Source of the DNA: a virus
Length of the DNA stretch: 64,000 nucleotides
Virus record (IMG/VR): IMGVR_UViG_3300037294_000405
Span: 1-64,000 of that record
Reading direction: 5' to 3' (one strand)
Shown: positions 12,451-50,573 of the stretch, one piece after another
Layout of the letters: each line of letters opens with the position of its first letter
Numbering within the stretch: position 1 is the stretch's first letter
Position numbers and translations under genes: made by a program
The notes under the pieces: generated by a model
Database searches by the model: none
What the model was told of the DNA's origin: nothing
The model's input: the letters and a program-made list of their open reading frames with translations, nothing else

Positions 12451-12480
12451 TTAAGCTTTTGTACCACAGCTAGAACAGAA
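12451..12480 (-). pseudogene. Orphaned former 3' end of the 13309-14217 gene (FCSSCGTKA*)
   Basis: Translates FCSSCGTKA-stop versus current end FCSQCAKKV-stop. Confidence 0.75.
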
Positions 12481-12526
12481 CATAAGTCTTTTTTAAAATA
12501 TCATGATATTTATAATAAAACAAAAT

Positions 12527-13312
12527 ATGAAATACCAATATAATTTAACAGCTTTTGAAAAAATAAATGAAGATTCAGCCTATTTCTTAGGTTTACTATA
12601 TGCTGATGGTAATCTAAGTGATAAAGGTCGTATTACGTTAAACCAATCAATTAAAGATATTGATATTGTAGAAAAATTTAAAACATTTTTAGGGACAAAT
12701 AAACCAATTAGAGTAGTTGAAGTAACTAATTCAGTCTCATTTAGTTTTCAAAATAAAATGATAACAAAACAATTAATAAATCTTGGGTTGGAGCCTAGAA
12801 AATCATTAACACTTAAATTTCCAATGTTCATAAAAAAAATTTATTTAAAAGATTTTATTCGAGGATATTTTGATGGTGATGGTTGTGTTTCTTTAACTAA
12901 AAACAAAACAACTTCTAACCTTAGAATACATTTAGTTGGAACTTATGATATGTTATTTAATATAAAAAAATATTTAACAGATGTATTATCAATTAATGAT
13001 AGAAAAATAAATCAAATAACGATTGGTAAAAATACTTTTCAATTAGAAATAACAAAAAAACTTGATGTTCAAAACATTAAAGATTTATTGTATAATAATT
13101 CAAAATATTTTTTATCTCGTAAAAGAAATATTTTTTTTACAAATATTAATAATAACAATGAAGATTGTTCATTAAGTTCGAAATATAAAAATATTTGTTA
13201 TAGAGAAAAAAGAAAAAGATGGAGAGCGACTTATTATCTTAATAATATTAGAAAAGAAAAAAGCTTCAAACATGAAATTGAAGCTTTTAATTTTCTTGAA
13301 TCTTTAGACTAA
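12527..13312 (+). CDS. Free-standing LAGLIDADG homing endonuclease with C-terminal AP2-like domain
   Basis: AYFLGLLYADG and FIRGYFDGDG; C-terminal SKYKNICYREKRKRWRA; start chosen at 12527 because an ATATTTAT motif lies at 12506-12513. Confidence 0.88.
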   Translation: MKYQYNLTAFEKINEDSAYFLGLLYADGNLSDKGRITLNQSIKDIDIVEKFKTFLGTNKPIRVVEVTNSVSFSFQNKMITKQLINLGLEPRKSLTLKFPMFIKKIYLKDFIRGYFDGDGCVSLTKNKTTSNLRIHLVGTYDMLFNIKKYLTDVLSINDRKINQITIGKNTFQLEITKKLDVQNIKDLLYNNSKYFLSRKRNIFFTNINNNNEDCSLSSKYKNICYREKRKRWRATYYLNNIRKEKSFKHEIEAFNFLESLD

Positions 13313-14217
13313 ACTTTTTTAGCACACTGACTACAGAATTTATGTCCTTTACCTAATTTGGCACCACAGTTTGTACAGTAAACCTTTACGTTTAAATCTT
13401 CGACTGTGTTTATTTTTTGTGATACTGGAAGAAGTTTATATTCTACCACATGGAAAGCAAAGTATTCAAAATCTTTGTTTACCGTTTTAAATTTTTGGTC
13501 AGAACCAGAACCTTGTTCAACTCTGCCCGTTTCAATTGTTTTTGTTGAACGAGTAATACTAGATAATGTATTTAACTTACTTTTTTTGACAGGTTCAGTT
13601 CTTTGTGTGTAAGTTACATCACCTAGACCTAACGAATCCATCGTGGCAATACTTGAACTATAAAGAGCTGTTGACCCTATAGAATTACTACTTGATGAAG
13701 TAAAAGTATTTGTACAACCAACATTAGTACTTGTAGTGCCGTGAATATAACCACCAGTGTTAGTAATCCATGTTGGCCCACCGAATGAACCGCTTGTAGC
13801 GCTACCTCCTTGTAGTGTTAGTATACCACCATAGTATTGTGGTGCTCTTTCCTTAAAAAATTCTACCTTAACGTCACCATTGTTTTCTATGGCTTTTTTT
13901 ACTTCGCTAGTGTTTGATACTTCGTAAGTATCAAATAAGAATTTTTTACCCACGTCTAAGTAACGGTCTAAGAATATTCTTTCACCAGGATTTAACACCA
14001 ACCCACCTTGAGATAAGGCTTTGTTATTTAATGTGATTTTTGCCAACACAACTTCTTTTGTTGGGTTAAAGATTTCAATTTGGAACTCTTGTCCGCTTTG
14101 AAGATAATAAGATGGCATTTCACCTTTTGTGTTGTAGACTTTTATTCTACTTTTGTTTACAGCAATGTTTGCTGTTGGTACCGTTTGAGACGGACCACTA
14201 ATCATTTGTTTTTTCAT
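13309..14217 (-). CDS. Hypothetical protein with C-terminal zinc ribbon
   Basis: YCTNCG...FCSQC; Ser/Thr/Gly-rich linker. Confidence 0.85.
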   Translation of the reverse strand: MKKQMISGPSQTVPTANIAVNKSRIKVYNTKGEMPSYYLQSGQEFQIEIFNPTKEVVLAKITLNNKALSQGGLVLNPGERIFLDRYLDVGKKFLFDTYEVSNTSEVKKAIENNGDVKVEFFKERAPQYYGGILTLQGGSATSGSFGGPTWITNTGGYIHGTTSTNVGCTNTFTSSSSNSIGSTALYSSSIATMDSLGLGDVTYTQRTEPVKKSKLNTLSSITRSTKTIETGRVEQGSGSDQKFKTVNKDFEYFAFHVVEYKLLPVSQKINTVEDLNVKVYCTNCGAKLGKGHKFCSQCAKKV

Positions 14218-14232
14218 TTTTTTAACTTTTAA

Positions 14233-14320
14233 TAGTTGTTATTATCGTACCAATTTCTTTGTTGCCTTAACAACTCTAAAGTCAAATTTGACTCGAAACC
14301 GATAACGTGAGTTAACGTAA
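14233..14320 (-). promoter_or_regulatory. Structured 5' leader (candidate cis-regulatory RNA), beginning with the right arm of the 12-bp inverted repeat
   Basis: Stems UAUCGGUUUC/GAAAUUGGUA, GAGUCAA/UUGACUU, GUUGU/GCAAC; alternative helix AGUUGUUA/UAACAACU; ATATTTAT motif at 14323-14330. Confidence 0.5.
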
Positions 14321-14357
14321 ATATAAATATACTAAAATAATTTTTTTTGTCAAGCTT

Positions 14358-15761
14358 TTATTGAGAATTTCTAAGGTCAACTTGATTGACAATCTCAAAT
14401 TTAATATTTTCTTTAATCGTAGTTACTTCTAGGTTGGATGTAACTTTCATATCTAAATAATAAACATTAGGTATAAGACTACTAGTATCTATCAAAAAAT
14501 AATAATTATTAGGTGTCGCTTCAACTGGTTGAAAATCTATTACGGTTAATTCAGCTGAACCTTCTTTAACGTATAATCTATATTCTAAATCACTTATTTT
14601 TTGATTTTGTTCGACAGTATAAGGTATTCTAGCAGAAACCAAAATTTTTCTTATATCACCACGTTTTATTTTTTCATTATGTTTAATACCAGAAACAGTC
14701 AACCCAACTTTTTTGGGTAGATAATCAGTGTTACCAATGTTATAATATCCTAAAGAGTCTTTTACAACAAAATCCAATGAGATATCTGGTCTAGCGACAC
14801 CATCAATATATATATTAGACCAAATATCAGTATACATGGTTTCTATATTTTCAGTAGTGGTTGGTACCAATAAATCTATTGAGTAAACTCCTTTGGTCAC
14901 ATGATTTACTTCATTACCCGAAAAACCAGAAAATAAAACATCATTATCGTATATATCTACTGTTGGATTGAAATCTAAGTTATGTGGGTTACCAGCTAAA
15001 TTTACATATAAAAATAGTTTGTTGTTTTTATCCAAATAAAAATCATTCCTATCATCTTTAATATGATTAGAATAAGTTGTTTCGATAAATGGTTCGTAGA
15101 ACGTTTGAGTATTATTTGTGAAGAAACCAACATATTGTAATTCGGTAGTATTTATTATTTCGTAAGCTCTAGAATATGCTATACCTAACCCATAATTAGT
15201 GTTGCCAGTTAATACTCCGTTAACAAAATCACTTACATCCATTTCAATATTTTCGTTTCCTTTATCAAAATGTTGTGTAGAAACAGTAATACCAGAAGGT
15301 GAACCAGAATAAACCCCAGCCCCATTAGCCCATTCAACACCTGTTCGTGCATTCACCCAGTTTGAAACACCATTGTTAAACGATGTATCACCGTTAGTTA
15401 ATATGGGTATCTCATAATCGTAACCAACACCATTATCCCATGGTTGATTAATTTTGAAAGCGATTAAATCAAAAGATGCTGTTCTATCTTTTGAACCCAT
15501 ATTTTTGTTTAATAATTCTTTATCAAATGAACCAGTGTTGGTCATTCTAAGGGTATGTTTTAATTTTGTTAAATCCGTAAATGTATCACCAGTATACAAT
15601 TCTTTAATTCGAGTTTCATCGAAATATAATAAAAATCTACTATATTGTTGTTGACTACCAGTGCCACCATAGAATAGTTCAGTTACTGGGTTTAACCCAG
15701 TGTTAACATTAGCGTTGCTGACGATAGTGTTGCTCTTATCAAAGTATGTTCGTATTACCAT
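14358..15761 (-). CDS. Putative virion structural protein
   Basis: 467-aa beta-rich ORF behind an ATATTTAT motif. Confidence 0.65.
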   Translation of the reverse strand: MVIRTYFDKSNTIVSNANVNTGLNPVTELFYGGTGSQQQYSRFLLYFDETRIKELYTGDTFTDLTKLKHTLRMTNTGSFDKELLNKNMGSKDRTASFDLIAFKINQPWDNGVGYDYEIPILTNGDTSFNNGVSNWVNARTGVEWANGAGVYSGSPSGITVSTQHFDKGNENIEMDVSDFVNGVLTGNTNYGLGIAYSRAYEIINTTELQYVGFFTNNTQTFYEPFIETTYSNHIKDDRNDFYLDKNNKLFLYVNLAGNPHNLDFNPTVDIYDNDVLFSGFSGNEVNHVTKGVYSIDLLVPTTTENIETMYTDIWSNIYIDGVARPDISLDFVVKDSLGYYNIGNTDYLPKKVGLTVSGIKHNEKIKRGDIRKILVSARIPYTVEQNQKISDLEYRLYVKEGSAELTVIDFQPVEATPNNYYFLIDTSSLIPNVYYLDMKVTSNLEVTTIKENIKFEIVNQVDLRNSQ

Positions 15762-15792
15762 TTTATCTTTTATTAATAAATATCTAAGAAGA

Positions 15793-16770
15793 TTAATTAA
15801 TGCGAATGTTTTTAGATAACATTGATTTTTCTAAATCTTCAGCCCTAGATTTAAAAGTAGCTAATGCTTGTTTATTACCAGACGCTGTTAAATCGGTTGC
15901 TGGATTTCCATTACCGTTATGAACGTGAGAAAATAAAGCTTCTTTTAATAATTTAAGATATTCAATTAATACATCACCAAAAGGTAACTGGTGTGCTTCT
16001 TCTAAAATTTTAAGCATTTCAGTTTCACTAATTAAATTATTTTGGTCGGTTACGTTAAATCTAGGACTACCACCTTTATGTGTTATTAAATTAATTTTAT
16101 TAGCGACAATATTTGTGATTGTACCCTTTTCACGTGTTTCTTTATTTATCGCAACATCGTTTTTAATTTGAATAAACGCTTGTGTTTTAGTGTTAAATTG
16201 AAACGGAAATGGATTTTTTGCCGATACTGGTGTGTTTTCAAATTTACCAGCCCTAAGAACTATCTCATTTTTTTTCTGGGTTATATCTGTGTTAAACCTA
16301 CCTTGAATGGATATATCTTCTAAATCTGGAAATATACCTTTAAGTTGTGGTATTGTATCGATATTTACTTTTGGACCAATAGGACCAAAACTGAAACCAG
16401 CCAATGCTGTTGTTAACCCGCTATCTCTATTTAATTTATCTAATTGTGAGATTATTGGACCAATATATAATCTATCAACTTGTTGTTTGGTTTTGTCTAA
16501 AACAAAAACCCAAACCGCTTCACCTATTTTTGGATATGTTGATAAAAATTTTGGTAACATAGGTGTAGCGTAAGGTAAATCAGCATTTAACACGCCATCA
16601 TCACCACCAACTGATTGGGAACCTTTTACCCTAACTTTTATTCTACCTAAACCAAATTCATCGGTGATAGAAATAACTTCAGCGTATTTTAGATACTTAA
16701 AACTACTTACATTTTCGTATCCGCTTTTTTCACCTCTATTTAATTTATTAGTACCTTCAATAAAATACAT
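15793..16770 (-). CDS. Baseplate hub/spike protein (gp5/VgrG OB-fold-like)
   Basis: DEFGLGRIKVRV and PKIGEAVWVF motifs; C-terminal HVH metal-tip motif. Confidence 0.75.
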   Translation of the reverse strand: MYFIEGTNKLNRGEKSGYENVSSFKYLKYAEVISITDEFGLGRIKVRVKGSQSVGGDDGVLNADLPYATPMLPKFLSTYPKIGEAVWVFVLDKTKQQVDRLYIGPIISQLDKLNRDSGLTTALAGFSFGPIGPKVNIDTIPQLKGIFPDLEDISIQGRFNTDITQKKNEIVLRAGKFENTPVSAKNPFPFQFNTKTQAFIQIKNDVAINKETREKGTITNIVANKINLITHKGGSPRFNVTDQNNLISETEMLKILEEAHQLPFGDVLIEYLKLLKEALFSHVHNGNGNPATDLTASGNKQALATFKSRAEDLEKSMLSKNIRIN

Positions 16771-16771
16771 A

Positions 16772-16951
16772 TTATTCCCCTTTTAATCTCTTAAGTATTA
16801 GTTTATTTGCAACATCAAATTTTTTTTCTATTTCAACCAATTTATCGTAGTCTTGTAACATTTTTAATTTGATAGCTTCGTGGTCTGCCTCCATTTTTTT
16901 AATCTCAAACAAAATCTCATTGTTTGATTTTTCTTTTAAATCTTCATACAT
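16772..16951 (-). CDS. Small coiled-coil protein (59 aa, missing from ORF track)
   Basis: MYEDLKEKSNNEILFEIKKMEADHEAIK...RLKGE*; fills the gap, stop adjacent to next ATG. Confidence 0.75.
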   Translation of the reverse strand: MYEDLKEKSNNEILFEIKKMEADHEAIKLKMLQDYDKLVEIEKKFDVANKLILKRLKGE

Positions 16952-16962
16952 ATTTTTATGTT

Positions 16963-17415
16963 TTATCTAATTACACCGTCACCTATACCCATTGTAGTTG
17001 TTGCACCTTGTGAAATAACTGGCGCACCTAAGTTACCAACACCAATAGTAGTAACGGATACGCCTGGTGGGATTACAACCTCTATTTTAGCTTCGGTTAA
17101 AACGGCATTGATTATTTCTTCAATTCGAATAACTTCCATGGCTTCTTCGTTATTAGGGCCATCGGCAAACACATCACCGACTTGTCTCCCAGCTTCTGAT
17201 TGTCTAGAAATTATTCTAGAAGCAACGGCACTTGCTGAAACACCAGGTCTTAATTTAGCACCAACCAATATAAGTGGTGGTGGTAAAGGAGCGATAGGTC
17301 CGTCTGGTATTGAAAAAGCAGATAAAATAATGTTTAAAACACCACTTATACTACCTAGGTTAAAACTAGAATTAATCGATTTTATTTCTTCTTTTTTATC
17401 TATATTAAACGCCAT
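16963..17415 (-). CDS. Hypothetical protein (baseplate region)
   Basis: 150-aa ORF coupled to upstream gene. Confidence 0.75.
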   Translation of the reverse strand: MAFNIDKKEEIKSINSSFNLGSISGVLNIILSAFSIPDGPIAPLPPPLILVGAKLRPGVSASAVASRIISRQSEAGRQVGDVFADGPNNEEAMEVIRIEEIINAVLTEAKIEVVIPPGVSVTTIGVGNLGAPVISQGATTTMGIGDGVIR

Positions 17416-18836
17416 TATCCTAAACCTTTTATTGTTCTAATTGCTTCTTGCGAAACACCCACTAAACTTAGCAGTTGAGTAGTTTTATTTTTTGCTTTAT
17501 CAGTTTGTTTTTCAATTTGTGCCGCAACAACTAACTCCGCTATTCTTTTCAACGCAATTTTCAATAACATTTTGATAATCATTGTTGTTATTCTTTTTAT
17601 TATTTTTTTAACTAAAGCTTTATTTTTTTTAATAAAATCAACACCATCGGTATAAGTTACTGATGGACCATATACTATTTTAAAATTAACTAAAAAAATA
17701 AGAACAACCTTTGGTGATAAAATAACGCTTACAATTCCTTTAATCAAAGTACTAATAATTCCTTGAATAAAGTTTAATTTAACTGATTGTTTATCTTGTG
17801 GGTTTAGCGAATTAATTGTTGTTTTGTCAGCCATTTTATCCAAGTGACTATTTAAAACTTCTTTTTTTTGTTGAGGCGTAATCGCACCGCCCATATCATT
17901 ATTAAAATCAGTTAAATTATTTTCGGGTATTGACGCATCAAATGTTGTTGATGTTTTAATTTTTACAATACCTTTCTTCCTATCATCAACATCATTTTGT
18001 ATTTTAGAAATTTCTTGGTTATCAAAAGTAAAATAATTATCACCAATAGATTGACCTTCGTCTGTGTTGACTATTTTATCGACTACATTATTAATTTTTG
18101 CCTCGGATTCTAATTGTTTTCTACTTTTACCTAAACTAAAGGATATAGAACCAAAAATAATGTCAATTATTTTATTAACTAACCCTTGAGAATTAAATAA
18201 GTTAAGACTATCAACAAAATTATTGTTTAAATCATTAAGCGTTTTTGTATCAAAACTTGGGTTAGCTTTTATAATAAGAGAGTTATTAGGGTTAACACCA
18301 TTAGGGTCTAATGAAACAAATTTAAAATCCATAATGTTTTGCCATGTATGTGTGTTTCCGTCATCTTGTATAACCGCATATAAAAAAGTGTTGAAGTCTG
18401 TTGAGGTCAAACCAGCTGTTGGGTCGTCATACATTAATTTACCAGATACACTAGTTGGGTCAACTTTCATTAAGTTTAAAAAATCAATCTTTTTAACTTC
18501 AATCACTATACCAGTAGTGGTATTTGATTTAATAAAGGCTGGTAAACTAGGGTCTATACCACAACTAACAATACTTTTTAATTCTGTTTTAAGTGCTTTT
18601 TTAATCTCCACTTCTATTTCTTCAATTGAGTAGGTTAGAGTGTCAACAAATGCCTTTATTAACGCAGTATATCCAATCAAAGATTTGATTAGGTCAGTTA
18701 GGAAAGTTATAGTATCCCCATTGTTATTAACTGAAGGAAATGATGAGCTTGATTTTAATTTTGGCATCGATTCTGTCAAAGTCTTATCAGCAGCTATTTT
18801 ACCAAAAATTTTTCTTTTTTTATCTAGTACACTCAT
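17415..18836 (-). CDS. Hypothetical protein
   Basis: 473-aa ORF. Confidence 0.8.
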   Translation of the reverse strand: MSVLDKKRKIFGKIAADKTLTESMPKLKSSSSFPSVNNNGDTITFLTDLIKSLIGYTALIKAFVDTLTYSIEEIEVEIKKALKTELKSIVSCGIDPSLPAFIKSNTTTGIVIEVKKIDFLNLMKVDPTSVSGKLMYDDPTAGLTSTDFNTFLYAVIQDDGNTHTWQNIMDFKFVSLDPNGVNPNNSLIIKANPSFDTKTLNDLNNNFVDSLNLFNSQGLVNKIIDIIFGSISFSLGKSRKQLESEAKINNVVDKIVNTDEGQSIGDNYFTFDNQEISKIQNDVDDRKKGIVKIKTSTTFDASIPENNLTDFNNDMGGAITPQQKKEVLNSHLDKMADKTTINSLNPQDKQSVKLNFIQGIISTLIKGIVSVILSPKVVLIFLVNFKIVYGPSVTYTDGVDFIKKNKALVKKIIKRITTMIIKMLLKIALKRIAELVVAAQIEKQTDKAKNKTTQLLSLVGVSQEAIRTIKGLG

Positions 18837-18841
18837 TTTGA

Positions 18842-19225
18842 TTAGTTATCGTTATCGTCATTTACATCTTTGTTTTTTAACATTTCACGAATAGTTTTAA
18901 AATCACTAAGAGACGCAGAACCGTTACTTCTTTCAGAAATAGCGCCCTCAGCATCCCCTCTATTTTTAATGATATCGCTTTGTAATTTAGCCAATTCTAA
19001 TTTTATCCTAATAGCTGAATCTTTGATTTTTAATAAACCACCTTTTTCTTTAGCTACTTTAGTTAAATCATCAATATCTACTGGGGTAGCACTAGCTGAC
19101 AATTCATTGATTGTTTTTTGAGCGTCATTTATTTGTAAACATGCATCATTATAAGTTTCTTGCATTAGACCCTCTAGCGATTCATTGTTATTTACTTTAA
19201 CTTCTTGTTTTTTCTTTCTTCCCAT
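18842..19225 (-). CDS. Hypothetical helical protein
   Basis: 127-aa ORF behind a GTATTTAT motif. Confidence 0.75.
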   Translation of the reverse strand: MGRKKKQEVKVNNNESLEGLMQETYNDACLQINDAQKTINELSASATPVDIDDLTKVAKEKGGLLKIKDSAIRIKLELAKLQSDIIKNRGDAEGAISERSNGSASLSDFKTIREMLKNKDVNDDNDN

Positions 19226-19276
19226 GGTTTTTGTTTTACTATAAATACCTGTTAGTTTGGTTTTATCTTAATAATT

Positions 19277-20005
19277 CTATAAACCATGGTGTTTTAATAA
19301 CTCATAAAGCTCTTTGTATCTTTTCATAGCCAACCTAATATCTTTTGTTGATAAGTTGGTGTAATTTCTCATGGTTTCTAAAACAGAATTTTTATTATAT
19401 TTAGAACCACCATCCATAGATTCAAACGCTGTTTCCCAGTTTTCTAGAATTTCTATAAGAGCTAACCCTACTTTTCTTTCGTTATCATTTAATTTCTTTT
19501 TTTGTGGTTGATTTTCATCATTCATTTCTTCTTGGATACCGCTAGATAATTTTTTTAAAAAATTATCCATCATAAACCCATCACCATCAATAACATAAGT
19601 CATATCTGACCTTTCCTCTATACTTGACGACATATCTTCATAAGATGATGTCTGTTTCATATATTTTTCATCTTTTATTAATAACCCAAGAATATAATTC
19701 TTGGCTATTGTTCCAAAATATGAATAAGCTTTTTTTCCTCTTCCAGTTTCAAATTTATGTACTTTAGTCATCAGAAAAGAAACGGTGTCACCATGAAGTT
19801 CTTCAAAAGTTTCACCCTTTCTATATAATTTATATCTTCTGATGATTGATTCAACCATTTTATCTAATGGTGCTTTTAACCATTCATTGAAAATAAGATT
19901 TCTTTCTGCTTCACTATCTGATTCTAAAAATTTAACTACCGCTTCTTCTTCCTCTGGACCAAAATACATATCATTTTTCCTTTTACGCCCTCTTTTGGTA
20001 ATCAT
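19277..20005 (-). CDS. Phage sigma factor for late transcription (gp55-like)
   Basis: Region-2-like KVHKFETGRGKKAYSYFGTIAKNY. Confidence 0.7.
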   Translation of the reverse strand: MITKRGRKRKNDMYFGPEEEEAVVKFLESDSEAERNLIFNEWLKAPLDKMVESIIRRYKLYRKGETFEELHGDTVSFLMTKVHKFETGRGKKAYSYFGTIAKNYILGLLIKDEKYMKQTSSYEDMSSSIEERSDMTYVIDGDGFMMDNFLKKLSSGIQEEMNDENQPQKKKLNDNERKVGLALIEILENWETAFESMDGGSKYNKNSVLETMRNYTNLSTKDIRLAMKRYKELYELLKHHGL

Positions 20006-20008
20006 TTA

Positions 20009-20821
20009 TTAACTTTGTGAATCGTATGTTATCTGTCTATCTTTTGGGAAATAGTATTCTTTTTTTGCCGTTGATAACCACCACTTAGCCTCAATTGGGT
20101 CTAAGGTTTCTTTGTACTCTGAGAATAAAGAACCTGGTCTTTGATTTACGTGTTTGTAACCAAATCTAGGTACAACCATTACTCTAACATCCTTGAATGT
20201 CATTCGTAATAAAAACTCATAGATAAACGTTAATTTAATACTAGGTTTAAACCCACCGAATTCTTCATAAGTAGATTTTTTTATAACCATCCCATCAATA
20301 TTAAAGTTTTGATAAGTTAATAAAGCGTTATTATCTAAAATACCTAACTCGTCTGAAAAACTATTGGCCCAGACTGCTTCGTTGGTAAAACCAATAAAGT
20401 TTCCTACTGAATCTACATCGATTACAATTGGTAAGAATAAATCAACGTTGGTGTGTGCGTCTCTGTATTCGACAACATTTTTGAACCAAATTTTAGCGTA
20501 TTCATCATCGAATTCTAAAATAGAGAACCATTCTGTTTTGGAAACGGAAACACCATAATTAACTTGCGAGGCAAAATCGGTTGCACCATCATTTTCAGCG
20601 ATGATTACTAATTTTTTATTTTCACCAAAATCAAAAGATTTGATATATTTTGCTGTTTCACTTCCTTTAGGTACAACAATAATTAATTCGTCTGGTTGCA
20701 CTGTTTGGTCTGTAACGCTTTGGATTGCGTTTTGAAACATAGGTTTTGTTACTTCGTTCAACTCATGAACGGGTAAGATAACACTTATCCCATTTAATTC
20801 TTTATTTTTCATTTTTTTCAT
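20009..20821 (-). CDS. Glycosyltransferase family 2
   Basis: ISVILPVH, AIQSVTDQT, DELIIV, LEFDDE; start at ATG 20821 or 20812. Confidence 0.85.
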   Translation of the reverse strand: MKKMKNKELNGISVILPVHELNEVTKPMFQNAIQSVTDQTVQPDELIIVVPKGSETAKYIKSFDFGENKKLVIIAENDGATDFASQVNYGVSVSKTEWFSILEFDDEYAKIWFKNVVEYRDAHTNVDLFLPIVIDVDSVGNFIGFTNEAVWANSFSDELGILDNNALLTYQNFNIDGMVIKKSTYEEFGGFKPSIKLTFIYEFLLRMTFKDVRVMVVPRFGYKHVNQRPGSLFSEYKETLDPIEAKWWLSTAKKEYYFPKDRQITYDSQS

Positions 20822-21524
20822 TTTTATTATTTTTATTATTTTTACTAGCATTTTTATTATTAAAATAACTACATTTTGGAATATTTATTTTAACCATTAT
20901 TTCACCATTTCTTCTAACCCAAACAAAACCTTTTGCTGTTAAATTTGTTTTATCTAACGTTTGTTGTATTTGTCTATCACTTATTTTAAAATTATTTTTG
21001 ACTTCCACCACAGAGTCCCATATTTTAATCAAATTACCAAATCTATCATATTGTAATATCTGGATAGTTCTTGGGTCATGATATACTTTAACATATTTTT
21101 CATATGACCAAATAAATCCTTTAGAGCTACTTAAAACACCCTTACAAACTTTTAATATTGCTGAATTATCAAAACCTAAAATTCTATTTATTTCAGCTGC
21201 CGTTTCCCATTCTTTTATGAATTTACCTTTTTTATCAAATTGGTAAATTTTGTTGAATTTTGTTTGACCACCAGTACCACCCTCCGATATATTATAACCG
21301 AATGTTGTTGCCAATAATTCGGTTATCCAATACTTCTCACGGTTATTTAACTCTTTCCTAGTAGTACATGTTTCAAGTATTTCTTTTTTAAAATTTTCCC
21401 GACCATTTTTATTTACAGCCAACTTAAGTATTTTACCAGAACCTAAATATTCTGGATTATTCTTTTCATCTTTACCAACATAAATTTTTCCGTTTAATAA
21501 ATTTGTCGTTTTATATATAATCAT
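20802..21524 (-). CDS. Free-standing GIY-YIG homing endonuclease (Seg-like) with NUMOD1-like repeats
   Basis: IIYKTTNLLNGKIYVGK, YLGSG, GYNISEGGTGG, two IxQxDxxGxxIKxW repeats; ATG 21524 follows an ATATTTAT motif at 21539-21546. Confidence 0.9.
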   Translation of the reverse strand: MIIYKTTNLLNGKIYVGKDEKNNPEYLGSGKILKLAVNKNGRENFKKEILETCTTRKELNNREKYWITELLATTFGYNISEGGTGGQTKFNKIYQFDKKGKFIKEWETAAEINRILGFDNSAILKVCKGVLSSSKGFIWSYEKYVKVYHDPRTIQILQYDRFGNLIKIWDSVVEVKNNFKISDRQIQQTLDKTNLTAKGFVWVRRNGEIMVKINIPKCSYFNNKNASKNNKNNKNEKNEK

Positions 21525-21578
21525 ATAATTCTTTTTATATAAATATCTAATAACTGGCAAAAAGACTGAAAGCTTGAT

Positions 21579-21623
21579 TTAAATATTAACTGGAAGGATT
21601 ACTGAAATATTTGTTTTTGTCAT
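21579..21623 (-). pseudogene. Orphaned former 5' end of the GT2 gene (MTKTNISVILPVNI*)
   Basis: ISVILPV identical to the GT2 N-terminus; ATG lies 16 nt after the upstream gene stop. Confidence 0.8.
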
Positions 21624-21639
21624 TTGTATATAAATTTAA

Positions 21640-22788
21640 TTAAACGTTAGTTGTTTGTGTTTTAGCGTCTTCTAATTTAGCTAAAGAATTTTGCATCTCT
21701 AAGATTCTGTTATTAGTTAAAGTATCGTATGCTTTAGATAACGCATCTTTTTGTTTTTCTTCCGTGTATAACCCTTGAGAACCTTTAATTCCTTCAATCA
21801 AATCATTCGGTACAGAGTCTTCTAACCAAACTTTTAAATAAGTTGCAATTAATTCTGGGATATTCATAGTTGTGTTCGTCCAAACACCATTGTTATTGAT
21901 AACTAAGTTACCTTCTTCATCTCTAGTTTCCATCCATTCTGGGATAAGATTAGGCATTTTACCAATAACTGTTGTGTTACATTCAATAGCCTCTAAAGGG
22001 AATGTCCCAAAACCAGAAGTATCGTCAACCCATACAGCTAGACAAGATTTAGCTAATTCAGTGGCGAATTGTTGTCTAGGTAAACCCCTTAATTCTTTAA
22101 AAGTAATCCATTTATAAATTGGAAATTGTAAATAAAATGATTTAGCAATTTTAGCCGCATCACCTTGGTTTCTAGTAAGGATTGATACAACTGGAATTTT
22201 AGGTTTATCACTGTCTTTAAAATAAGACGGGATTGATACTGGCACAACTTGTGTGTTAATTGATGGGAATAACGATTTTAAATAATCAGCTTGTTTTTCT
22301 GAAGTTGTTATTACATCATTAAAACCATAATCAGTATTCCATCTTTTACCGATAGGTAATAACTCCAATAAGTAATCATAACTTTGCGAGAAAACTACTT
22401 TTTTACATGGGAACCCTTTTACTTGGTCCATAATGTTTGAAAAAATTTCTGGTATGACAATAATGTCAGCTGGGCTAATATTTAAGTTCTGCCCTTCAAT
22501 TGAGATGTGTGGCAATGAAGCATATTCTTCACCTAACCATTCACTAACACCTTGACCATTTTCATCGGCTTTTAATTTGTAATCGTTTTTTTCATGTAGA
22601 ATAGCGGCTTTATAACCTAATTCATTAAGCATTTTAACGTGCTCATAGATGTTTGCGATACCAGCTGTAGGGTTACCTTTAGTATCTAGGGTAAAGAAAT
22701 AAATATTAAAATCTTTATCTTCTAAATTTTTGATTACTTTGGTAACGTTATCGATTTGTTCTTCCATTTTTTTTGTTTGTTCTTCCAT
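21640..22788 (-). CDS. Putative GT-B glycosyltransferase
   Basis: DIIVIPEIF, SGFGTFPLEAIECNTTVIG (GT4-like ExFGxxxxEA). Confidence 0.7.
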   Translation of the reverse strand: MEEQTKKMEEQIDNVTKVIKNLEDKDFNIYFFTLDTKGNPTAGIANIYEHVKMLNELGYKAAILHEKNDYKLKADENGQGVSEWLGEEYASLPHISIEGQNLNISPADIIVIPEIFSNIMDQVKGFPCKKVVFSQSYDYLLELLPIGKRWNTDYGFNDVITTSEKQADYLKSLFPSINTQVVPVSIPSYFKDSDKPKIPVVSILTRNQGDAAKIAKSFYLQFPIYKWITFKELRGLPRQQFATELAKSCLAVWVDDTSGFGTFPLEAIECNTTVIGKMPNLIPEWMETRDEEGNLVINNNGVWTNTTMNIPELIATYLKVWLEDSVPNDLIEGIKGSQGLYTEEKQKDALSKAYDTLTNNRILEMQNSLAKLEDAKTQTTNV

Positions 22789-42092: not shown

Positions 42093-42100
42093 CTATTTAG

Positions 42101-42199: not shown

Positions 42200-42214
42200 T
42201 AAAAAAATATAACA

Positions 42215-45200: not shown

Positions 45201-46024
45201 TAAAGTTTTGGGATAAAGTTGATAAGTTACCAAATAACATGGAAGAAACTGAATGGGAAAAACTTAGAGTTGATTACCACGAACGTATGCGTATCGCTAA
45301 AATAGAAGGTCTTATTCGTGAAAAAGAAACGATAGAAGATATAATTAAACATTTAGAACTTAACGATTTAAAAAAAGCAATGCAAGGTGTGTTGCCTGTA
45401 GATATATTAGTTTTTTGCGATATTTCAGATGATGATTCGTTTTCACTTATTTCTAGAAAATGGCATGAACCATTATGTTATTTTAACGATATATTTAAGT
45501 ATGAAAAACAAGCAGTAGAACGAGATAACTACTACAAAATAGTTGGTAAAGAAAATGAGGATAATCGGTATGAAGAATGGTTAGATTATTTAGCCGAGTG
45601 TAAAGTAATGACTGGGGAAACAATAAGTTACGAATTTGAAACCATTGTTGACACTAAAAATATGAGTTTTGTGCTTGATAAGGTAAAAGAAAATTCATCC
45701 AACGTGGTTGTTGAACAAATAGTAGAGGTTAAAAAAAAGCGTGTTATGTCTGAAGGTGATGATGAAGATGATGAAATTGAAGAGGATGAAGATGGTAATT
45801 TAGTTAGAAATGATGAAGATTTAAAATTAGATGATGAATTTGATGACACGTATGGTGAGGTACCAGAAGGGTATGTAGTCGATGATACACCGTACTATGT
45901 TGATGCTGACGAACTGGCTAGTGTAAACGGAATGGATGAAGAAGCTGAATTACAACAACCAGAACCACCTAAACCAGTGGTAGAGTTTAAAAAAGAAGAA
46001 CCAGAAGATGATTGGGGTTTCTAG
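42215..46024 (+). CDS. Family B DNA polymerase
   Basis: Exo FDLETEG, GYNSENFD; Pol DYAALYP, KILGNSWFG, GDTDG, KNYA. Confidence 0.95.
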   Translation: MSQTKTKVSNELIESFLQGTDPQQYIVAIEANYDKPMVTLVINDKDATPTKRLEDHPYKPFLWFKDSVIDKLYGGKRMKVIEACRKYDIKITLLRTNDDEGNIPLRIENGYKYMAICKKSYNNLVNFFKEGGVDVFSKDKNREFVIFSPTEQFLIQTGKRLFKGMDDYDDVHRFQFDLETEGLYASKNAIFQIGVRDNRGLEEVMEVKGTNGYEKRDSERETIQKFFRVIDMVKPDIITGYNSENFDWPFLFERAERLSVPITELAITLNRISKIKRKPSTLKLGGETEAYNQTHMYGYNIIDISHAVRRAMAINTEIKSWGLKYITQYSEIAKPNRVYVPGDKINSTWADKLNDYAFNDENGDWFKITDKNPLKENYIKTTGQFIVQRYLCDDLWETEQIDNIFNQASFLIAKMLPTTLQRSSTMGTAGQWKLIMAAWSYENGLAIPETQTKREFTGGLSRLLEVGYARNVVKLDYAALYPKTQLTHNIFPDLDISGVMEGILTYVVDTRDKFKFLNGKEKKIYKNLETKLKEEKTLLDKEKETLKKEIQEHKALANLYDKKQLPLKILGNSWFGSYGAPHIFNWGDTDSAEETTCRGRQYLRLMVRHFTETHGFRALVGDTDGFNFSFPDNVNDIKYIAKGSHWKTTEDAGKELSGLDAVLAEFNENYMEGRMGLDIDDICNSTINFARKNYANDIGGKIKLVGNSVKSKRMSVYIEDFLGKSIRMLLDGDGHSFINYYYEYVDRIYNYQIPLVKIASKAKVKLSMTDYKKKATMKNKAGNPLPKQAHMELAMREALDITLGDVLYYINIGTSKSQGDLKTVEINKMTKKQADAWKLENPDMSLPVVRKEVQLNSKLIDPETVERDFELIKELEMLKKAVAALEEGDGNIEALKLRMESIDSQLFTDEYNVARYLDAFNKKVKPLLVCFDPEIRDNILLDIVKIKDKETKKVTEKLKERQIFTRNECELVSGMPFKEADQDSYQDLMRMEDKEIKFWDKVDKLPNNMEETEWEKLRVDYHERMRIAKIEGLIREKETIEDIIKHLELNDLKKAMQGVLPVDILVFCDISDDDSFSLISRKWHEPLCYFNDIFKYEKQAVERDNYYKIVGKENEDNRYEEWLDYLAECKVMTGETISYEFETIVDTKNMSFVLDKVKENSSNVVVEQIVEVKKKRVMSEGDDEDDEIEEDEDGNLVRNDEDLKLDDEFDDTYGEVPEGYVVDDTPYYVDADELASVNGMDEEAELQQPEPPKPVVEFKKEEPEDDWGF

Positions 46025-46031
46025 AAATAAT

Positions 46032-46055
46032 AAAGGGGCTTACGCCCCTTTTTTT
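46032..46055. terminator. Bidirectional intrinsic terminator
   Basis: AAAGGGGC-TTAC-GCCCCTTTTTTT. Confidence 0.88.
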
Positions 46056-46058
46056 ATT

Positions 46059-46136
46059 TTAATAAACCCAGAACCCTAGTGGTCTGTATTTCATCGATGT
46101 ATTTAAGTCTGTTGCTTCTTTAGCACCTCTTTCTAA
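46059..46136 (-). pseudogene. Orphaned former 3' end of the neck protein gene (LERGAKEATDLNTSMKYRPLGFWVY*)
   Basis: Near-copy of 47077-47154 (LERGALEAGYLNTSMKYRPLGFWVY*). Confidence 0.92.
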
Positions 46137-46185
46137 TTTTTTTTTTATCTTTTTAAATTTATCACATATTTATTATTAAAAAGAT

Positions 46186-47097
46186 ATGTGTATTAAAAGA
46201 ACAAACAGTAAAGGGACAACAGAGGGTTTTATAATTAAATCTAAAAACATTCACGGAGATAAATTTGATTATTCTAGAGTTATTTATATTAAAAGTAAAG
46301 AAAAAGTGAAAATTATTTGTTTATATCATGGGGAGTTTGAACAAACACCAGATAACCATATAAATAATAAGCAAGGTTGTCCACTATGTGCTAATAATGT
46401 TAAACTTTCCACTAAAGAATTTATAAAAAAATGTAACCAAATACATAATTTTAGATACGAATATTTAGTTACAATATATATAAATGATAAGACTAAAGTG
46501 TTAATAACTTGTAACTTACACGGTGTATTTGAACAAAAGGCTGGTAATCATTTTAGGGGGGATGGTTGTCCAAAATGTAGTGGTAATTATATGGATACAA
46601 ATTATTTTATTAACAAGGTTAAATTAATTCATGGGGGTAAGTATGATTATTCGTTAACTAATTATATATCACAACAAAAAAAAATAAAAATAATTTGTCC
46701 AAAACACGGTATGTTTAAACAAAACCCAAATAATCATATTAATGGTAATGGTTGCCCTATTTGTAAAGAATCTAAGGGTGAGCGTTTTATTAGTGAATTT
46801 CTAATAAATAATAATATTAATTTTATCCCACAATATAGGTTTAGTGATTGTAGGGATATATTACCATTACCTTTTGACTTTTATTTACCAGATTATAATA
46901 CATGTATCGAATTTAATGGGAGACAACATTATATACCAATAAAAATTTGGGGTGGGGATAATACTTTAAAAGAAATTAAGAAAAGAGATAAGATAAAAAT
47001 GGAATATTGTACCACTAACAATATTCCATTAATAAGTATTAAATATAATCAAAACATATTATCTAAATTGAATTATTTAATAAACCCAAAAACCTAA
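46186..47097 (+). CDS. Free-standing endonuclease: three Zn-binding repeats (DUF723-like) plus Vsr/DUF559-like PD-(D/E)XK domain
   Basis: IHGxKYDYS...IICPxHGxFxQ...GCPxC x3; LPFDFYLPDYNTCIEFNGRQHY...RDKIK. Confidence 0.85.
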   Translation: MCIKRTNSKGTTEGFIIKSKNIHGDKFDYSRVIYIKSKEKVKIICLYHGEFEQTPDNHINNKQGCPLCANNVKLSTKEFIKKCNQIHNFRYEYLVTIYINDKTKVLITCNLHGVFEQKAGNHFRGDGCPKCSGNYMDTNYFINKVKLIHGGKYDYSLTNYISQQKKIKIICPKHGMFKQNPNNHINGNGCPICKESKGERFISEFLINNNINFIPQYRFSDCRDILPLPFDFYLPDYNTCIEFNGRQHYIPIKIWGGDNTLKEIKKRDKIKMEYCTTNNIPLISIKYNQNILSKLNYLINPKT

Positions 47098-48216
47098 AGG
47101 TCTGTATTTCATCGATGTATTTAAGTATCCAGCCTCAAGAGCTCCACGTTCTAGTTGTGTTGTGGATGAAAGTCTAAGTAGTCTAGCCTCCAATCTTTCT
47201 AACACAGCTTTTTTCTCTTCATTACCTTCGGAGATAAGTGTTTCATAATCCATAGTTCTTTCTGCTTCTGGAGGTCCAACAACCCCACCAAACTTACCTC
47301 TAGTTCTACCTAAAGCTCTTTTAGCTTCTGCAATAAATAATTGACGAATAAGTGTTTTTGTTGGTTCGTTAAATTCAGCGTAATCTAATCTGGCTAAAGG
47401 GACTTGGTTTGGCATTTTAATTATATCTGGGTTATCCTCTTTACATTTATCTAAATTTTCTGGAGTCGTGTCATAATAATGATACCAAACTTGGCAACCT
47501 GTCATATTTATTGAGCTACCTACCCCACCCATTCCTTGTCCAAATGATAATTTAGAGCCAGGAGTACTCATTAAATGCAATAATTTAGTACCATTTGGAC
47601 CAGCAGTAACTTTGTGAACTAATTCACTTCTAACGATACGATTTTTTAAGTTCATATCGGCAGCCGTTAAAAGAATATCAAAAGCTGGTGCGATATAATA
47701 ACCTTGTCTACCGTTAGGACCACCTGTACCAACGCCACCACCTGTTTGTGCAAACCCACCACCAAAACCGTAATCAATACCACCATAGTTAGCCAATAAT
47801 GCTTGACTAGTTGGAGGAGGGGTAACCCATAATACTTCATTTATTTCACGACCAGCTGGAATAACATAAACTTGTCTACCAGCCTCAATTTCAACGTAGT
47901 CTTTTTTTAACTCCCACGGACCATTAGACTGCAAACCAACTTGTTTTGAGTACGCATAAGTATATTGTGTCATGAAATCAAAATTTCTAACACTCAAAGC
48001 AAATGCCATGTCTGTCGTATCTAAATTTTGCCCTAATAAAGATTGCCATTGGTGTTCAACTAACCATTCTTGGACATATTGAGCATAGTCCTCTATTGAA
48101 ATTTCTAATAGGGTACAAAGTTGCTCATCTTCCAATTCAATTTTACGCACTGGTGCGCCCAATGAATGTCTGAATTGTCGAAATAATTTTTCTTTTTCTT
48201 CTATAGTTACTGACAT
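47077..48216 (-). CDS. Neck protein (T4 gp13-like)
   Basis: LGAPVRKIELEDEQL; C-terminal LGRTRGKF...LISEGNEE. Confidence 0.8.
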   Translation of the reverse strand: MSVTIEEKEKLFRQFRHSLGAPVRKIELEDEQLCTLLEISIEDYAQYVQEWLVEHQWQSLLGQNLDTTDMAFALSVRNFDFMTQYTYAYSKQVGLQSNGPWELKKDYVEIEAGRQVYVIPAGREINEVLWVTPPPTSQALLANYGGIDYGFGGGFAQTGGGVGTGGPNGRQGYYIAPAFDILLTAADMNLKNRIVRSELVHKVTAGPNGTKLLHLMSTPGSKLSFGQGMGGVGSSINMTGCQVWYHYYDTTPENLDKCKEDNPDIIKMPNQVPLARLDYAEFNEPTKTLIRQLFIAEAKRALGRTRGKFGGVVGPPEAERTMDYETLISEGNEEKKAVLERLEARLLRLSSTTQLERGALEAGYLNTSMKYRPLGFWVY

Positions 48217-48255
48217 AATAATTTTGTTTTATTATAAATATCAATAAGTTTTAAT

Positions 48256-48510
48256 TTAAGCTAAAAACTTCTTAGTTATCTCAACAGCTTCACTAATTGA
48301 TTGGAAGGAGACATTAGGTACCAATAATTGTCTATCTATTTTTATTACTGGGACTTCTTCAGCTTTTGAGACTTTAGAAATTTCATCCCATTCTTTAATA
48401 TTTTCTTCTAAGTTTATGTTTACGTCACGATATTTAATCCCTTGTGAATCGTAAATCTCTTTTAATTCCTTACAATAAGGGCATTCTGGGAAACTATAAA
48501 TTGTTATCAT
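48256..48510 (-). CDS. Glutaredoxin (NrdH-like)
   Basis: IYSFPECPYC, VPVIKI. Confidence 0.85.
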   Translation of the reverse strand: MITIYSFPECPYCKELKEIYDSQGIKYRDVNINLEENIKEWDEISKVSKAEEVPVIKIDRQLLVPNVSFQSISEAVEITKKFLA

Positions 48511-48511
48511 A

Positions 48512-48723
48512 TTACATTGTTATTAAGTCATCTACCAATAAAGCAGTTATTTCATCTTCTGTTAATTTTTTATCACCCATAATTATATTGATGATGTCTT
48601 TTTTACTATTTAACATAGACCACATTCTACTCGAAATAGTATCGTCAAATAATTGATAGTAAACATTGACATCATTTTTTTGACCAATACGGAATGCTCT
48701 ATCTTCTGCTTGTTCATTGTTCC
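48512..48723 (-). pseudogene. Second, diverged copy of the helicase C-terminal ~70 codons
   Basis: NNEQAEDRAFRIGQKNDVNVYYQLFDDTIS... duplicates 48726-48944; begins immediately after the helicase stop. Confidence 0.88.
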
Positions 48724-48725
48724 AA

Positions 48726-50573
48726 TTATAAATCACCATTCAATATTTTTTGGATTAATAAATCTGTTTCATTTTCTTTGGTTATATTTTCAACACCTAA
48801 TATTATGTTAATTATTTCTTGTTTTTGTTTTAAAGTTTCCCACATCCTTATTGATATAGTGTCGTCAAATAATTGATAATAAACATTAACATCATTCTTT
48901 TGTCCAATTCTATACGCTCTATCTTCAGCTTGTTCGTTATTACCAGTAACCCAATCAAATGAGTTAAAAATAACCACAGTTGCTTCAGTAAGTGTGATAC
49001 CAACACCAGCAGATTTTATATTACCAACAAAAACTTTTACTTTATCATTGTTCTGAAACACATCAACTGATTTTTGTTTTTGTAATGTTGTCATTGGGCC
49101 ATTGTGTTTAACCGCCAATTTACCAAAGTGATTAGATATCATTTCTAATTCATCAGTGAAATTAGTGAATACTATCACTTTACGACCCATTTCAATAGCG
49201 TTTTCTACCATTTCAATAGTATAAGGGATAGCTTCTTGTGCGATAAATTGTCTAAGTAGGATAAGTTCAACTAAATCTTTTTGTAGGTTATCTGTTTTCT
49301 TACCCTCTAATTTTCTTTTTTGTAAGTATTCTTCCCAAAGTAATTCATATTGTTTAAGACCTTTTTTATCTAATATATGGTGCATAGGTGTCACTACTTT
49401 ATCTGGCATATCCAATACTTCAGTTTTTAAACGTCTAATAATAGTGTTTTTGGTTTTATTGGCTAATTCTTCTAAATTACTAGCACCATCAGTAAGCCAT
49501 ATTTGTTTTCTTTGACCATTCTTAAGGGTTCTAAAGAACTTTCTACCGTCACAATACCTTACAGCATAATGTTTCCAATTATCTGCGATAGGGGACTTAA
49601 TAATCTTTAAAAGATTAAAGAAATCCATAGGTCTATTTGCGACAGGTGTACCAGTTAACAACCAAACTCTCTCTATTTTTTCTTTAGCACAAAGTTCCAC
49701 CATTATTTTACCTCTAATACTTTCATTATTTTTTAAATAATGAGCCTCATCAATAATACATAAATCATAATTAGCGTTTATCAATTCTCTATTTAAAATT
49801 TCTTCTGGTTCACCTTCTTTTGGTTTTTTACCAGAAGATAAAGTATGGAAATTTTTAAGGATATCAAAATTAATTATCGTAAATTTAGCGTCACTCCATT
49901 TTTTACCGTCAATAATTGTTGTGTCATCACAAAAAACATTAATTTCACGCTCCCAATTAATTTTTGTTGATGATGGGCAAACAACTAATATTTTTTTAGC
50001 ACCGCTTTCTAAAGCGGCAACAATTGACTGAATAGATTTACCTAAACCCATGTCATCTGCTAGTATACAACCTTTCCTAGATAACAAAAACTTTATACCA
50101 TCTTCTTGATGTTGGTAAAGTTTTTTGTTATCTAAAGATAAAACTTCATTGTATTTTGAAAAATCAACGTTTACATTTATCGATTCAAAATATGGGTCAT
50201 CAGTTAGTTGTGTTTTAGGCAACCAATACATTTTAGACTCTTTTTGGTTTTGTTTTAGTTTACCGTATATATGAAATGTTTTATCTGTATCAGCAAGGAT
50301 GAATTCAATTAAAACTTTTTCTGGTGTAAAAGATAACTCATCTATTTTTTTTAGTTCTTCACCTAGATAAGGTGTTATACCAACAACCCTATTAATGAAG
50401 AGAGGTTCCCTTTCATGGTTTTCAGTAATGTATTTTGATTGGTTTTCAGTTAAAGCCAATTTATTATTTTTCAAAAAAGCTATTTTTAGTTTTTTGATGT
50501 ATGGATTTATCCCTTCATATGCCTCAAGCAATGAAATAGCTGAATGTCCTCGTATATCGTCTAAATTTATCAA
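48726..50573 (-). CDS. SNF2-family (HARP/SMARCAL1-like) helicase
   Basis: LADDMGLGKS, IIDEAH, LTGTP, IRRLK, GVGITLT, QAEDRAYRIGQ. Confidence 0.93.
   Translation of the reverse strand: MINLDDIRGHSAISLLEAYEGINPYIKKLKIAFLKNNKLALTENQSKYITENHEREPLFINRVVGITPYLGEELKKIDELSFTPEKVLIEFILADTDKTFHIYGKLKQNQKESKMYWLPKTQLTDDPYFESINVNVDFSKYNEVLSLDNKKLYQHQEDGIKFLLSRKGCILADDMGLGKSIQSIVAALESGAKKILVVCPSSTKINWEREINVFCDDTTIIDGKKWSDAKFTIINFDILKNFHTLSSGKKPKEGEPEEILNRELINANYDLCIIDEAHYLKNNESIRGKIMVELCAKEKIERVWLLTGTPVANRPMDFFNLLKIIKSPIADNWKHYAVRYCDGRKFFRTLKNGQRKQIWLTDGASNLEELANKTKNTIIRRLKTEVLDMPDKVVTPMHHILDKKGLKQYELLWEEYLQKRKLEGKKTDNLQKDLVELILLRQFIAQEAIPYTIEMVENAIEMGRKVIVFTNFTDELEMISNHFGKLAVKHNGPMTTLQKQKSVDVFQNNDKVKVFVGNIKSAGVGITLTEATVVIFNSFDWVTGNNEQAEDRAYRIGQKNDVNVYYQLFDDTISIRMWETLKQKQEIINIILGVENITKENETDLLIQKILNGDL

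Follow-up and report, generated by a model that had tools for sequence, protein, structure and literature searches.

Free-standing endonuclease genes between two versions of the same gene end in an uncultured phage genome

How can a free-standing homing endonuclease gene lie within the end of a conserved phage gene that remains whole, with neither an intron nor an intein around it? The question is raised by the 64,000-nucleotide (nt) stretch analysed here (the window), the first 64 kb of the 155-kb IMG/VR record IMGVR_UViG_3300037294_000405, a contig of an uncultured giant phage with an estimated completeness of 44%. In the window a LAGLIDADG gene (locus L1), a GIY-YIG gene (L2) and a gene for a Zn-finger/Vsr-like nuclease (L3) each lie between two versions of one host-gene terminus, while a helicase locus (L4) has both versions and no nuclease. 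The probable answer is that free-standing homing-endonuclease cassettes insert within the terminal codons, first or last, of conserved genes of the phage, a spare gene end taking the place of the intron or intein.

The sequencing run containing this DNA is labelled as a salt lake metagenome; runs X2–X4 held only small shares of the stretch, from relatives. Metagenomic relatives are numerous, on contigs of up to ~370 kb, and 71–80 related loci (designated by L and three digits) were compared per host gene, the closest nuclease-free ones being aligned at the nucleotide level. Megablast of positions 12000–22000 against GenBank phages gave no match, and tblastn of the helicase and polB found there only relatives of <32% identity, so no cultured relative was usable for comparison.

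Cassette borders and displaced gene ends

The compact cassettes (0.8–1.0 kb) each consist of a nuclease gene, a promoter-like motif before it and, in frame with the host gene body, a diverged terminus that replaces the native one (Table 1). At L1 the invaded gene, termed Y, is read convergently with an Endonuclease_NS gene. The nuclease-free loci L083 and L085 read ...GGACATAA[AT] followed directly by TTCTGTTCTAGCTGTGGTACAAAAGCTTAA and the terminator, and the 858 nt of the window are inserted exactly between these two segments. Gene Y ends in FCSSCGTKA and a stop in nuclease-free L083–L086, identical to the L1 orphan. Over 10 codons the orphan and the replacement end share 70% of nucleotides and 60% of amino acids (aa).

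The mobility of this unit is evident from locus L114, whose gene Y protein is 55% identical to that of the window, yet whose LAGLIDADG protein is 97.8% identical and followed by the same FCSQCAKKV end. In a binned alignment 844/860 columns of the two cassettes are identical (98.1%, with bins at 97–100%), the replacement end included; outside the cassette identity drops to ~70%, both in the gene body and, across the opposite border, in the orphan and terminator. High identity that covers the cassette and nothing else marks the spare end as part of the mobile unit. In L114 the orphan (FCSNCGTKT and a stop) is its own. A co-converted flank in L114 (92% over 1160 nt) was considered and rejected on the basis of the same binned alignment. 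In L107, with a nuclease 60% identical, the same layout is found at the same codon, again with its own orphan.

At L2 the start of a glycosyltransferase gene is replaced. Nuclease-free L156 and L157 read ATGGCAAAAACAAATATTTCAGTAATCCTTCCA continued by GTTCATGA..., and the 820 nt of the window stand between the two. Proteins of these two loci start with MAKTNISVILPVHE, and the pattern of single starts, M[AE]KTNISVILPVHE, matches the L2 orphan, which is continuous with the stop of the upstream gene exactly as in L156/L157. In the ISVILP stretch five of six codons differ between orphan and replacement, all synonymously (55.6% nt identity), and in the nuclease-free loci L195/196 and L216/219 these codons differ from the replacement version by no more than 2 nt. 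The same layout at the same codon is present in L191, where MKEINNISVILP runs on as NKK and a stop, followed by a GIY-YIG gene and then a new start.

Gene X, invaded at L3, probably encodes a T4 gp13-like neck protein, as judged from sequence matches. Loci L019 and L009 read ...TCATCCACA.C.C joined to AATTAGAAAGAGGTGC..., then the stop, the terminator and the polB end; the 1018 nt of the window are inserted at this join, and the alignment resumes identically past the insertion, through the terminator into the polB end. Orphan and replacement are recognizably similar (tblastn E=4e-8), with nine synonymous and three non-synonymous changes in 26 codons (79.5% nt and 88.5% aa identity). The replacement end is identical in 72/78 nt (92%) to the native single end of nuclease-free L045/L046, whose gene X body is only ~80% identical to that of the window. 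The middle 26 nt of this end equal the window's own orphan and hold five differences from the otherwise closest allele, L045, which suggests a small conversion patch between the replacement end and the orphan. In L035, with a nuclease 65% identical, the layout is the same, the current end is of the LEAGYLN type and the orphan is identical to the native end of lineage L048. Homologous nucleases at the same codon in divergent phages (L107, L114, L191 and L035) thus each leave the native end of their lineage as an orphan.

The C-terminal domain of the L3 nuclease (model with a predicted local distance difference test score, pLDDT, of 77.9) had as top Foldseek matches E. coli Vsr (1cw0, 1vsr; probability 1.0, template-modelling (TM) score 0.52 by target) and the catalytic domain of the EDxHD/Vsr-like enzyme I-Bth0305I (PDB 3r3p; probability 0.99, TM 0.63), with weak E values of 0.03–0.1. 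The residues D231, E242 and H248 are invariant in seven homologues, and comparison of the sequence with PDB gave no meaningful match. The term "Vsr-like" is used here as a supported lead rather than as an assignment to that family. I-Bth0305I is intron-encoded (PMC3239194), unlike the L3 protein, which is free-standing and has three N-terminal treble-clef Zn repeats.

These alignments bear out the layout proposed in a first-pass annotation of this DNA. The coordinates and the duplicated ends of the three nuclease loci agree with it; the functional copy overlaps the nuclease gene (by 4 nt at the stop in L1, by 21 nt in L3, and with the host start over the GIY-YIG stop in L2), and the orphan stands beside the terminator (L1, L3) or the upstream gene (L2), a junction that is continuous in nuclease-free relatives. 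At all four loci such relatives have a single terminus, continuous with the gene body and matching the orphan. The swapping of termini between lineages, also proposed there, is seen both in the L114 cassette and in the L045-like end at L3.

Assembly error, or chance duplication unrelated to the nucleases, might be suspected in an uncultured metagenomic contig in which two of the duplications span only 6–11 codons. Those of L3 and L4 are significant alone; those of L1 and L2 are too short, lie below the 22-bit threshold of the short-peptide self-scan and rest on the alignment to nuclease-free relatives. Against an artefact, which the first-pass annotation had itself raised, independent assemblies from other samples show the same layouts (L114, L107, L035, L191, L019/L020 and L311/L312), and alignment to relatives places the junctions cleanly, to the base. 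In addition, a 23-kb Logan contig, although probably from the same sample, reproduces positions 45900–49100 (L3 and L4) with 0 differences. This explanation is extremely improbable.

Lost nucleases and further insertions

The fourth locus of the window illustrates what remains when a nuclease disappears. The gene of an SNF2-family helicase is followed by a second copy of its last ~70 codons, from NNEQAEDRA (motif VI) to the stop (E=1e-21); over 72 codons the copies share 69.9% of nucleotides and 62.5% of amino acids. Most relatives have one helicase end, located 2–7 nt from a glutaredoxin-like gene, and these single ends are of the B type, 70–92% identical to the orphan versus 55–70% to the current (A-type) end. 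The single end of L004 matches the window's orphan at 92.5% identity, and the orphan of L019 matches it at 100%.

A module of 1.2–2.7 kb lies between an A-type end and a B-type orphan in L003, L018, L019/L020, L055 and L060/61/63. It codes for a protein of 164–183 aa (phrog_1035 "endonuclease VII", 2.8e-21), with a stop overlapping that of the helicase, and for an Arc-like protein. In L019, which comes closest to the window among the relatives, it additionally contains a TnpB-like open reading frame (ORF) of 388 aa (L019:2030-3196, minus strand; Cas12f1-like_TNB, 5.5e-20), which is absent from the 1.2-kb versions. The same module follows the A-type end in L040/L042, where no orphan was detectable. 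Between L019 and the window both flanks of the module site are ~99% identical; L019 holds ~2.5 kb extra at this site, bounded by TTTATAAT repeats. This comparison identifies the helicase locus as a scar, at which the window has lost the endonuclease VII-like, Arc-like and TnpB-like genes between the TTTATAAT repeats; the earlier observation of two termini and no nuclease is confirmed, the nuclease module being retained in L019. In a tree of helicase ends the nuclease-adjacent ones fall on one side of a branch (SH-aLRT 91) and the orphans are scattered among native single ends; the "A"/"B" rows of L031, L067/68 and L082 in this tree are one segment wrongly split and are to be disregarded, and they affect the group statistics.

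The same helicase region carries an in-frame insertion of ~340 aa in L047, L052, L054, L056 and L066 (e.g., L056:2782-5706). Weak matches to Intein_splicing and Hint_2 indicate that it is probably an intein. Two different selfish strategies, the EndoVII-like cassette and the probable intein, therefore target the same part of this gene.

The whole 155-kb record was self-scanned for duplicated ends, and comparison with relatives confirmed three more events. Two of them affect a single RuvC-like gene (118380-119093), which is replaced at its start and at its end (G000 117413-120071, equivalent to locus L234 1414-4072), one beside a GIY-YIG gene and the other beside an HNH/EndoVII-like gene, and its nuclease-free relatives have exactly the orphan-type N- and C-termini. 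In L237, the closest relative, both nucleases are lost, a remnant of the GIY-YIG gene persists, and the C-terminus is chimeric, being A-type to ...GCCTATGCTTGTG and B-type after it; read from its sequence, this end is a product of recombination between the A and B copies. The third event involves a paralogue of the Zn-finger nuclease (129788-130696), located between an orphan start, MKIKFRYIMLFLALSVAGCAAYFSV with a stop, and a membrane-protein gene with a diverged start (G000 129661-130696, locus L235); nuclease-free relatives have the orphan-type start. In total, the 155 kb contain seven events and at least four nuclease families. Two routes of decay are shown by the aligned loci, namely deletion of the nuclease between short repeats and recombination of the two ends into a chimeric terminus.

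Several observations concern neighbouring genes. Homologues of the Zn-finger nuclease lie antisense between the glutaredoxin-like gene and gene X in L009, L019, L043, L047 and L055–L063, their stop overlapping the end of the glutaredoxin-like gene, which may be another site of terminus replacement. In L067/L068 (6001-6135) a stretch of 45 aa, 49% identical to residues 7–51 of gene X, precedes the full gene by ~300 nt; no nuclease was detected there, and the stretch may represent an orphan N-terminus remaining after nuclease loss. A further GIY-YIG gene of the window (54561-55337, plus strand) is situated between two fibre-like genes (52731-54461 and 55463-58039) that have similar N-termini. 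It overlaps neither of them, no orphan terminus was detected, and it looks like an ordinary intergenic free-standing nuclease gene. Pfam contained no family for gene X, for the 382-aa gene upstream of the glycosyltransferase or for the Arc-like partner.

Expression signals and splicing

A ATATTTAT(A/T)AT(A/T)AAA motif is located 13–15 nt before the ATG of each of the three nuclease genes. There are 38 copies of ATATTTAT versus 17.5 expected, and 15/38 lie 11–39 nt before an ORF start. It is thus the general upstream element of the phage, which ties the nucleases to the expression programme of the phage itself. In the C-terminal cassettes, L1 and L3, a terminator-like hairpin is present 20–50 nt past the new stop, within the 3' coding region of the nuclease; the terminator scan found three hairpins in the L1 region versus 0.1 expected. 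A ATATTTAT motif is also present in L019 at ~4400-4424, just upstream of the helicase orphan, on the helicase-sense strand and facing the orphan and the glutaredoxin-like gene. This far-edge copy could restore transcription of the downstream genes cut off by the insertion.

Introns and inteins are the common homes of homing nucleases, and some relatives have the probable intein in the helicase region, so that each insert might be taken for a self-splicing intron or intein-like element and the orphan for a real last or first exon. This possibility is very remote. Rfam revealed no intron family at the gathering score in the window, nor at E≤1 in the three cassettes. The replacement end is in frame and terminated by a stop, the protein being kept through synonymous changes; the nuclease ORFs are separate from the host frames, and at L1 and L3 they are antisense to the host gene. 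The orphan mini-ORF at L2 meets a stop three codons into the cassette. An intron or intein in the cassettes was rejected on the grounds that they contain stops in the host frame and match no Rfam family at E≤1.

Table 1. Coordinates of the cassettes, gene ends and associated features. Positions are those of the window for L1–L4 and of the 155-kb record for the RuvC-like gene.
Locus	Feature	Position	Strand	Basis or remark
L1	LAGLIDADG homing endonuclease gene	12527-13312 (ORF 12503/12527-13312)	+	LAGLIDADG_3 28.2 bits (cutoff 22.5); phrog_4645 5.5e-43
L1	Mobile cassette, 858 nt: promoter motif, LAGLIDADG gene, replacement end	12481-13338		Clean insertion vs L083/L085
L1	Orphan, native last 9 codons and stop (FCSSCGTKA), adjoining native terminator	12451-12480	-	Same sequence and flank as L083/L085 ends
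L1	Replacement end (FCSQCAKKV and stop)	13309-13338	-	Six-frame reading; common to L114 cassette
L1	Native bidirectional terminator hairpin, shared with convergent Endonuclease_NS gene	12392-12429		Terminator scan; conserved in L083/L085
L1	Terminator-like hairpin within cassette, ~20 nt past new host-gene stop	13259-13288	-	Terminator scan
L1	Host gene Y, conserved phage protein with C-terminal zinc ribbon	13309-14217	-	Pfam Zn_Ribbon_1; 71 related loci
L2	GIY-YIG/NUMOD1 homing endonuclease gene	20802-21524	-	Pfam GIY-YIG 24.2 bits (cutoff 22.6) and NUMOD1
L2	Mobile cassette, 820 nt: promoter motif, GIY-YIG gene, replacement N-terminus	20771-21590		Clean insertion vs L156/L157 after ILP codons
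L2	Orphan mini-ORF MTKTNISVILPVNI and stop: native start and 11 codons (MTKTNISVILP), running into cassette (VNI and stop)	21579-21623	-	
L2	Replacement N-terminus MKNKELNGISVILP	20771-20812	-	Overlaps GIY-YIG stop
L2	Host gene, family 2 glycosyltransferase	20009-20812	-	Pfam Glycos_transf_2
L3	Nuclease gene, three treble-clef Zn repeats and C-terminal Vsr-like domain	46186-47097	+	DUF4379/DUF723; phrog_559 2.4e-81; phrog_9084
L3	Mobile cassette, 1018 nt: promoter motif, nuclease gene, replacement end	46137-47154		Clean insertion vs L019/L009
L3	Orphan LERGAKEATDLNTSMKYRPLGFWVY and stop, native last 25 codons and stop of gene X	46059-46136	-	25/25 aa identical to L008, L009, L019 single end
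L3	Native terminator adjoining orphan	46032-46051		
L3	Replacement end LERGALEAGYLNTSMKYRPLGFWVY and stop	47077-47154	-	Overlaps nuclease 3' end by 21 nt
L3	Terminator-like hairpin within cassette, 47 nt past new stop	46998-47030	-	
L3	Host gene X	47077-48216	-	Atlas clusters carry PF26809 (lead only); weak phrog_211 match
L4	Host gene, SNF2-family helicase	48726-50573	-	Pfam SNF2-rel_dom and Helicase_C
L4	Current helicase end, A-type (nuclease-associated), including motif VI	48726-48941	-	
L4	Orphan, native B-type helicase end; abuts glutaredoxin-like gene, a junction also seen in single-ended relatives	48512-48721	-	
L4	Deletion scar, site of the lost nuclease module	48722-48728		Comparison with L019
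L1–L3	ATATTTAT copies before nuclease genes	L1 12506-12513; L2 21539-21546; L3 46166-46173		
RuvC-like gene	GIY-YIG gene overlapping RuvC-like start	117692-118441		
RuvC-like gene	Orphan start MIKEPEFLLALDVSTSKL, then FN and stop	117413-117490		
RuvC-like gene	HNH/EndoVII-like gene overlapping RuvC-like stop	119090-119836	-	
RuvC-like gene	Orphan end	119898-120071		

Proposed homing mechanism and its known counterparts

Alignment with relatives establishes the insertion architecture, the exact cassette borders, the recurrence at the same codon in divergent lineages, the movement of cassette and end as one unit, and the later decay. Insertion leaves the gene whole, as a body with a replacement end, and the native end stranded as an orphan by the old terminator or the upstream gene. 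In the mechanism proposed, the nuclease would cut alleles that lack it, at the junction or close by, within a motif of high conservation: the junctions lie in helicase motif VI, the active-site strand of the RuvC-like protein (LDVSTS), the nucleotide-binding strand of the glycosyltransferase (ISVILPV) and the zinc knuckle of the Zn-ribbon protein (CxxC). Repair would then copy the cassette; the gene body would be one homology arm and the native end, with the adjoining downstream DNA, the other. The diverged replacement end together with the split target would protect the carrier. The replacement ends may be natural alleles acquired from an earlier host lineage, as argued for mitochondrial cases.

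A serious rival remains, in which the cassettes are real and have been spread by ordinary or illegitimate recombination between co-infecting phages, and the nucleases, cutting elsewhere or non-specifically or being domesticated, only mark the boundaries. Phage nuclease genes are known at boundaries of genetic exchange (PMC10448857), nuclease action at the junction is a prediction from sequence, and L1 has no co-conversion tract. On the other side, homologous nucleases 54–98% identical occupy the same codon in divergent lineages, 7/7 events link a duplicated end to a nuclease that is still there or disappeared recently, and the junctions are in the most conserved motifs. Because identical codons in such motifs recur, site-specific homing is favoured, and the rival is considered unlikely.

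Several points nevertheless weigh against homing by spare ends. The block of high identity between the window and L114 ends exactly at the cassette borders, with no co-conversion of the flanks at L1. Target cleavage and immunity conferred by the replacement end are predicted features, and an illegitimate or microhomology join would be needed for the first orphan-forming event. For the third family the nuclease fold depends on weak structural matches (Foldseek E ~0.03–0.1). Occupancy is low and patchy, with nucleases in 2/71, 4/80, 1/80 and 10/77 related loci at L1, L2, L3 and L4, respectively, that is, in 1–10 of ~70–80 per site. Finally, the replacement ends are within natural allelic variation, so "recoding for immunity" is not required.

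Some statements of the first-pass annotation accordingly need narrowing. The spare end, described as recoded, is indeed diverged, and synonymously so at L2, but it looks like a natural allele from a diverged lineage. Unrelated nuclease families are indeed involved, with the count raised from three to at least four. The motif ascribed to each nuclease as its own is present before each of them but is general to the phage, and the word "essential" for the host genes reflects their conservation only.

The closest counterparts are the mORF "gene hybrids" of fungal mitochondria, found in Allomyces macrogynus atp6, Rhizopus atp9, Mortierella cox2 and Glomus atp6/atp9/cox2/nad3, in which the gene body is expressed together with a foreign C-terminus brought by the insertion and the native one persists downstream, nearly identical to that of element-free relatives; cleavage of the element-free allele by the Allomyces endonuclease has been shown biochemically (PMC3630166). 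Shared with these are the endonuclease ORF in the 3' end of the gene, the diverged in-frame C-terminus, the displaced native one that matches relatives, and the joint movement of ORF and terminus between lineages, read there as horizontal transfer. The present cases differ in that the host is a phage, N-termini are replaced too, a single genome holds at least four nuclease families, and one gene is invaded at both ends. Whereas the mORFs are often fused in frame, the phage nuclease genes stand apart from the host frame, possess a start and promoter motif of their own and are often antisense; moreover, decay intermediates are visible and the cassettes appear to carry replacement terminators.

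In phage T4 the free-standing seg and mob nuclease genes are intergenic or split genes into two polypeptides (mobE/nrdA, mobA/gene 60) (PMC2988022). This "intronless homing" has in common with the present cassettes free-standing GIY-YIG and HNH-type genes with phage promoters and neither intron nor intein, ORF overlaps with neighbours, a patchy distribution and conserved targets in neighbouring genes. The T4 review (PMC2988022), by contrast, has no occurrence of "duplicat" and no displaced terminus, and the co-conversion of flanks that T4 typically shows is not observed at L1. Intein- and intron-borne nucleases, and the "fractured genes" with split inteins, likewise invade conserved motifs of essential genes and preserve the product (PMC2677866); here there is no splicing element, and gene integrity is kept at the DNA level by the duplicate terminus. 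Within the full-text literature searched, no phage description of the spare-end layout was found. By analogy, the spare-end trick is that known from fungal mitochondria, and the phage case would be a variant of this kind.

A wider generalization can be offered tentatively, at somewhat less than even confidence: homing endonucleases of large phages may generally have terminus replacement as a fourth lifestyle, beside the intron, the intein and the intergenic site, reached convergently by LAGLIDADG, GIY-YIG, Vsr-like and EndoVII/HNH-type enzymes. The orphan would act as the downstream homology arm and mark, to the codon, where an uncharacterised nuclease homes, and the cassette would bring its own promoter and terminator. 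Cycles of invasion and decay, with the foreign end persisting or recombining with the orphan once the nuclease has gone, would steadily shuffle the termini of core phage proteins among lineages.

The finding indicates that selfish nucleases occupy the most conserved motifs of phage genes without splicing machinery. It provides a concrete mechanism for mosaic phage gene ends and accounts for stray mini-ORFs and "duplicated" gene fragments that confuse annotation. From each orphan/replacement pair one can read where an uncharacterised site-specific nuclease is likely to bind its target, which makes prediction of meganuclease-like targets testable. One genome and its relatives capture the whole life cycle of such elements, from invasion and transfer to loss of the nuclease and recombination of the termini.

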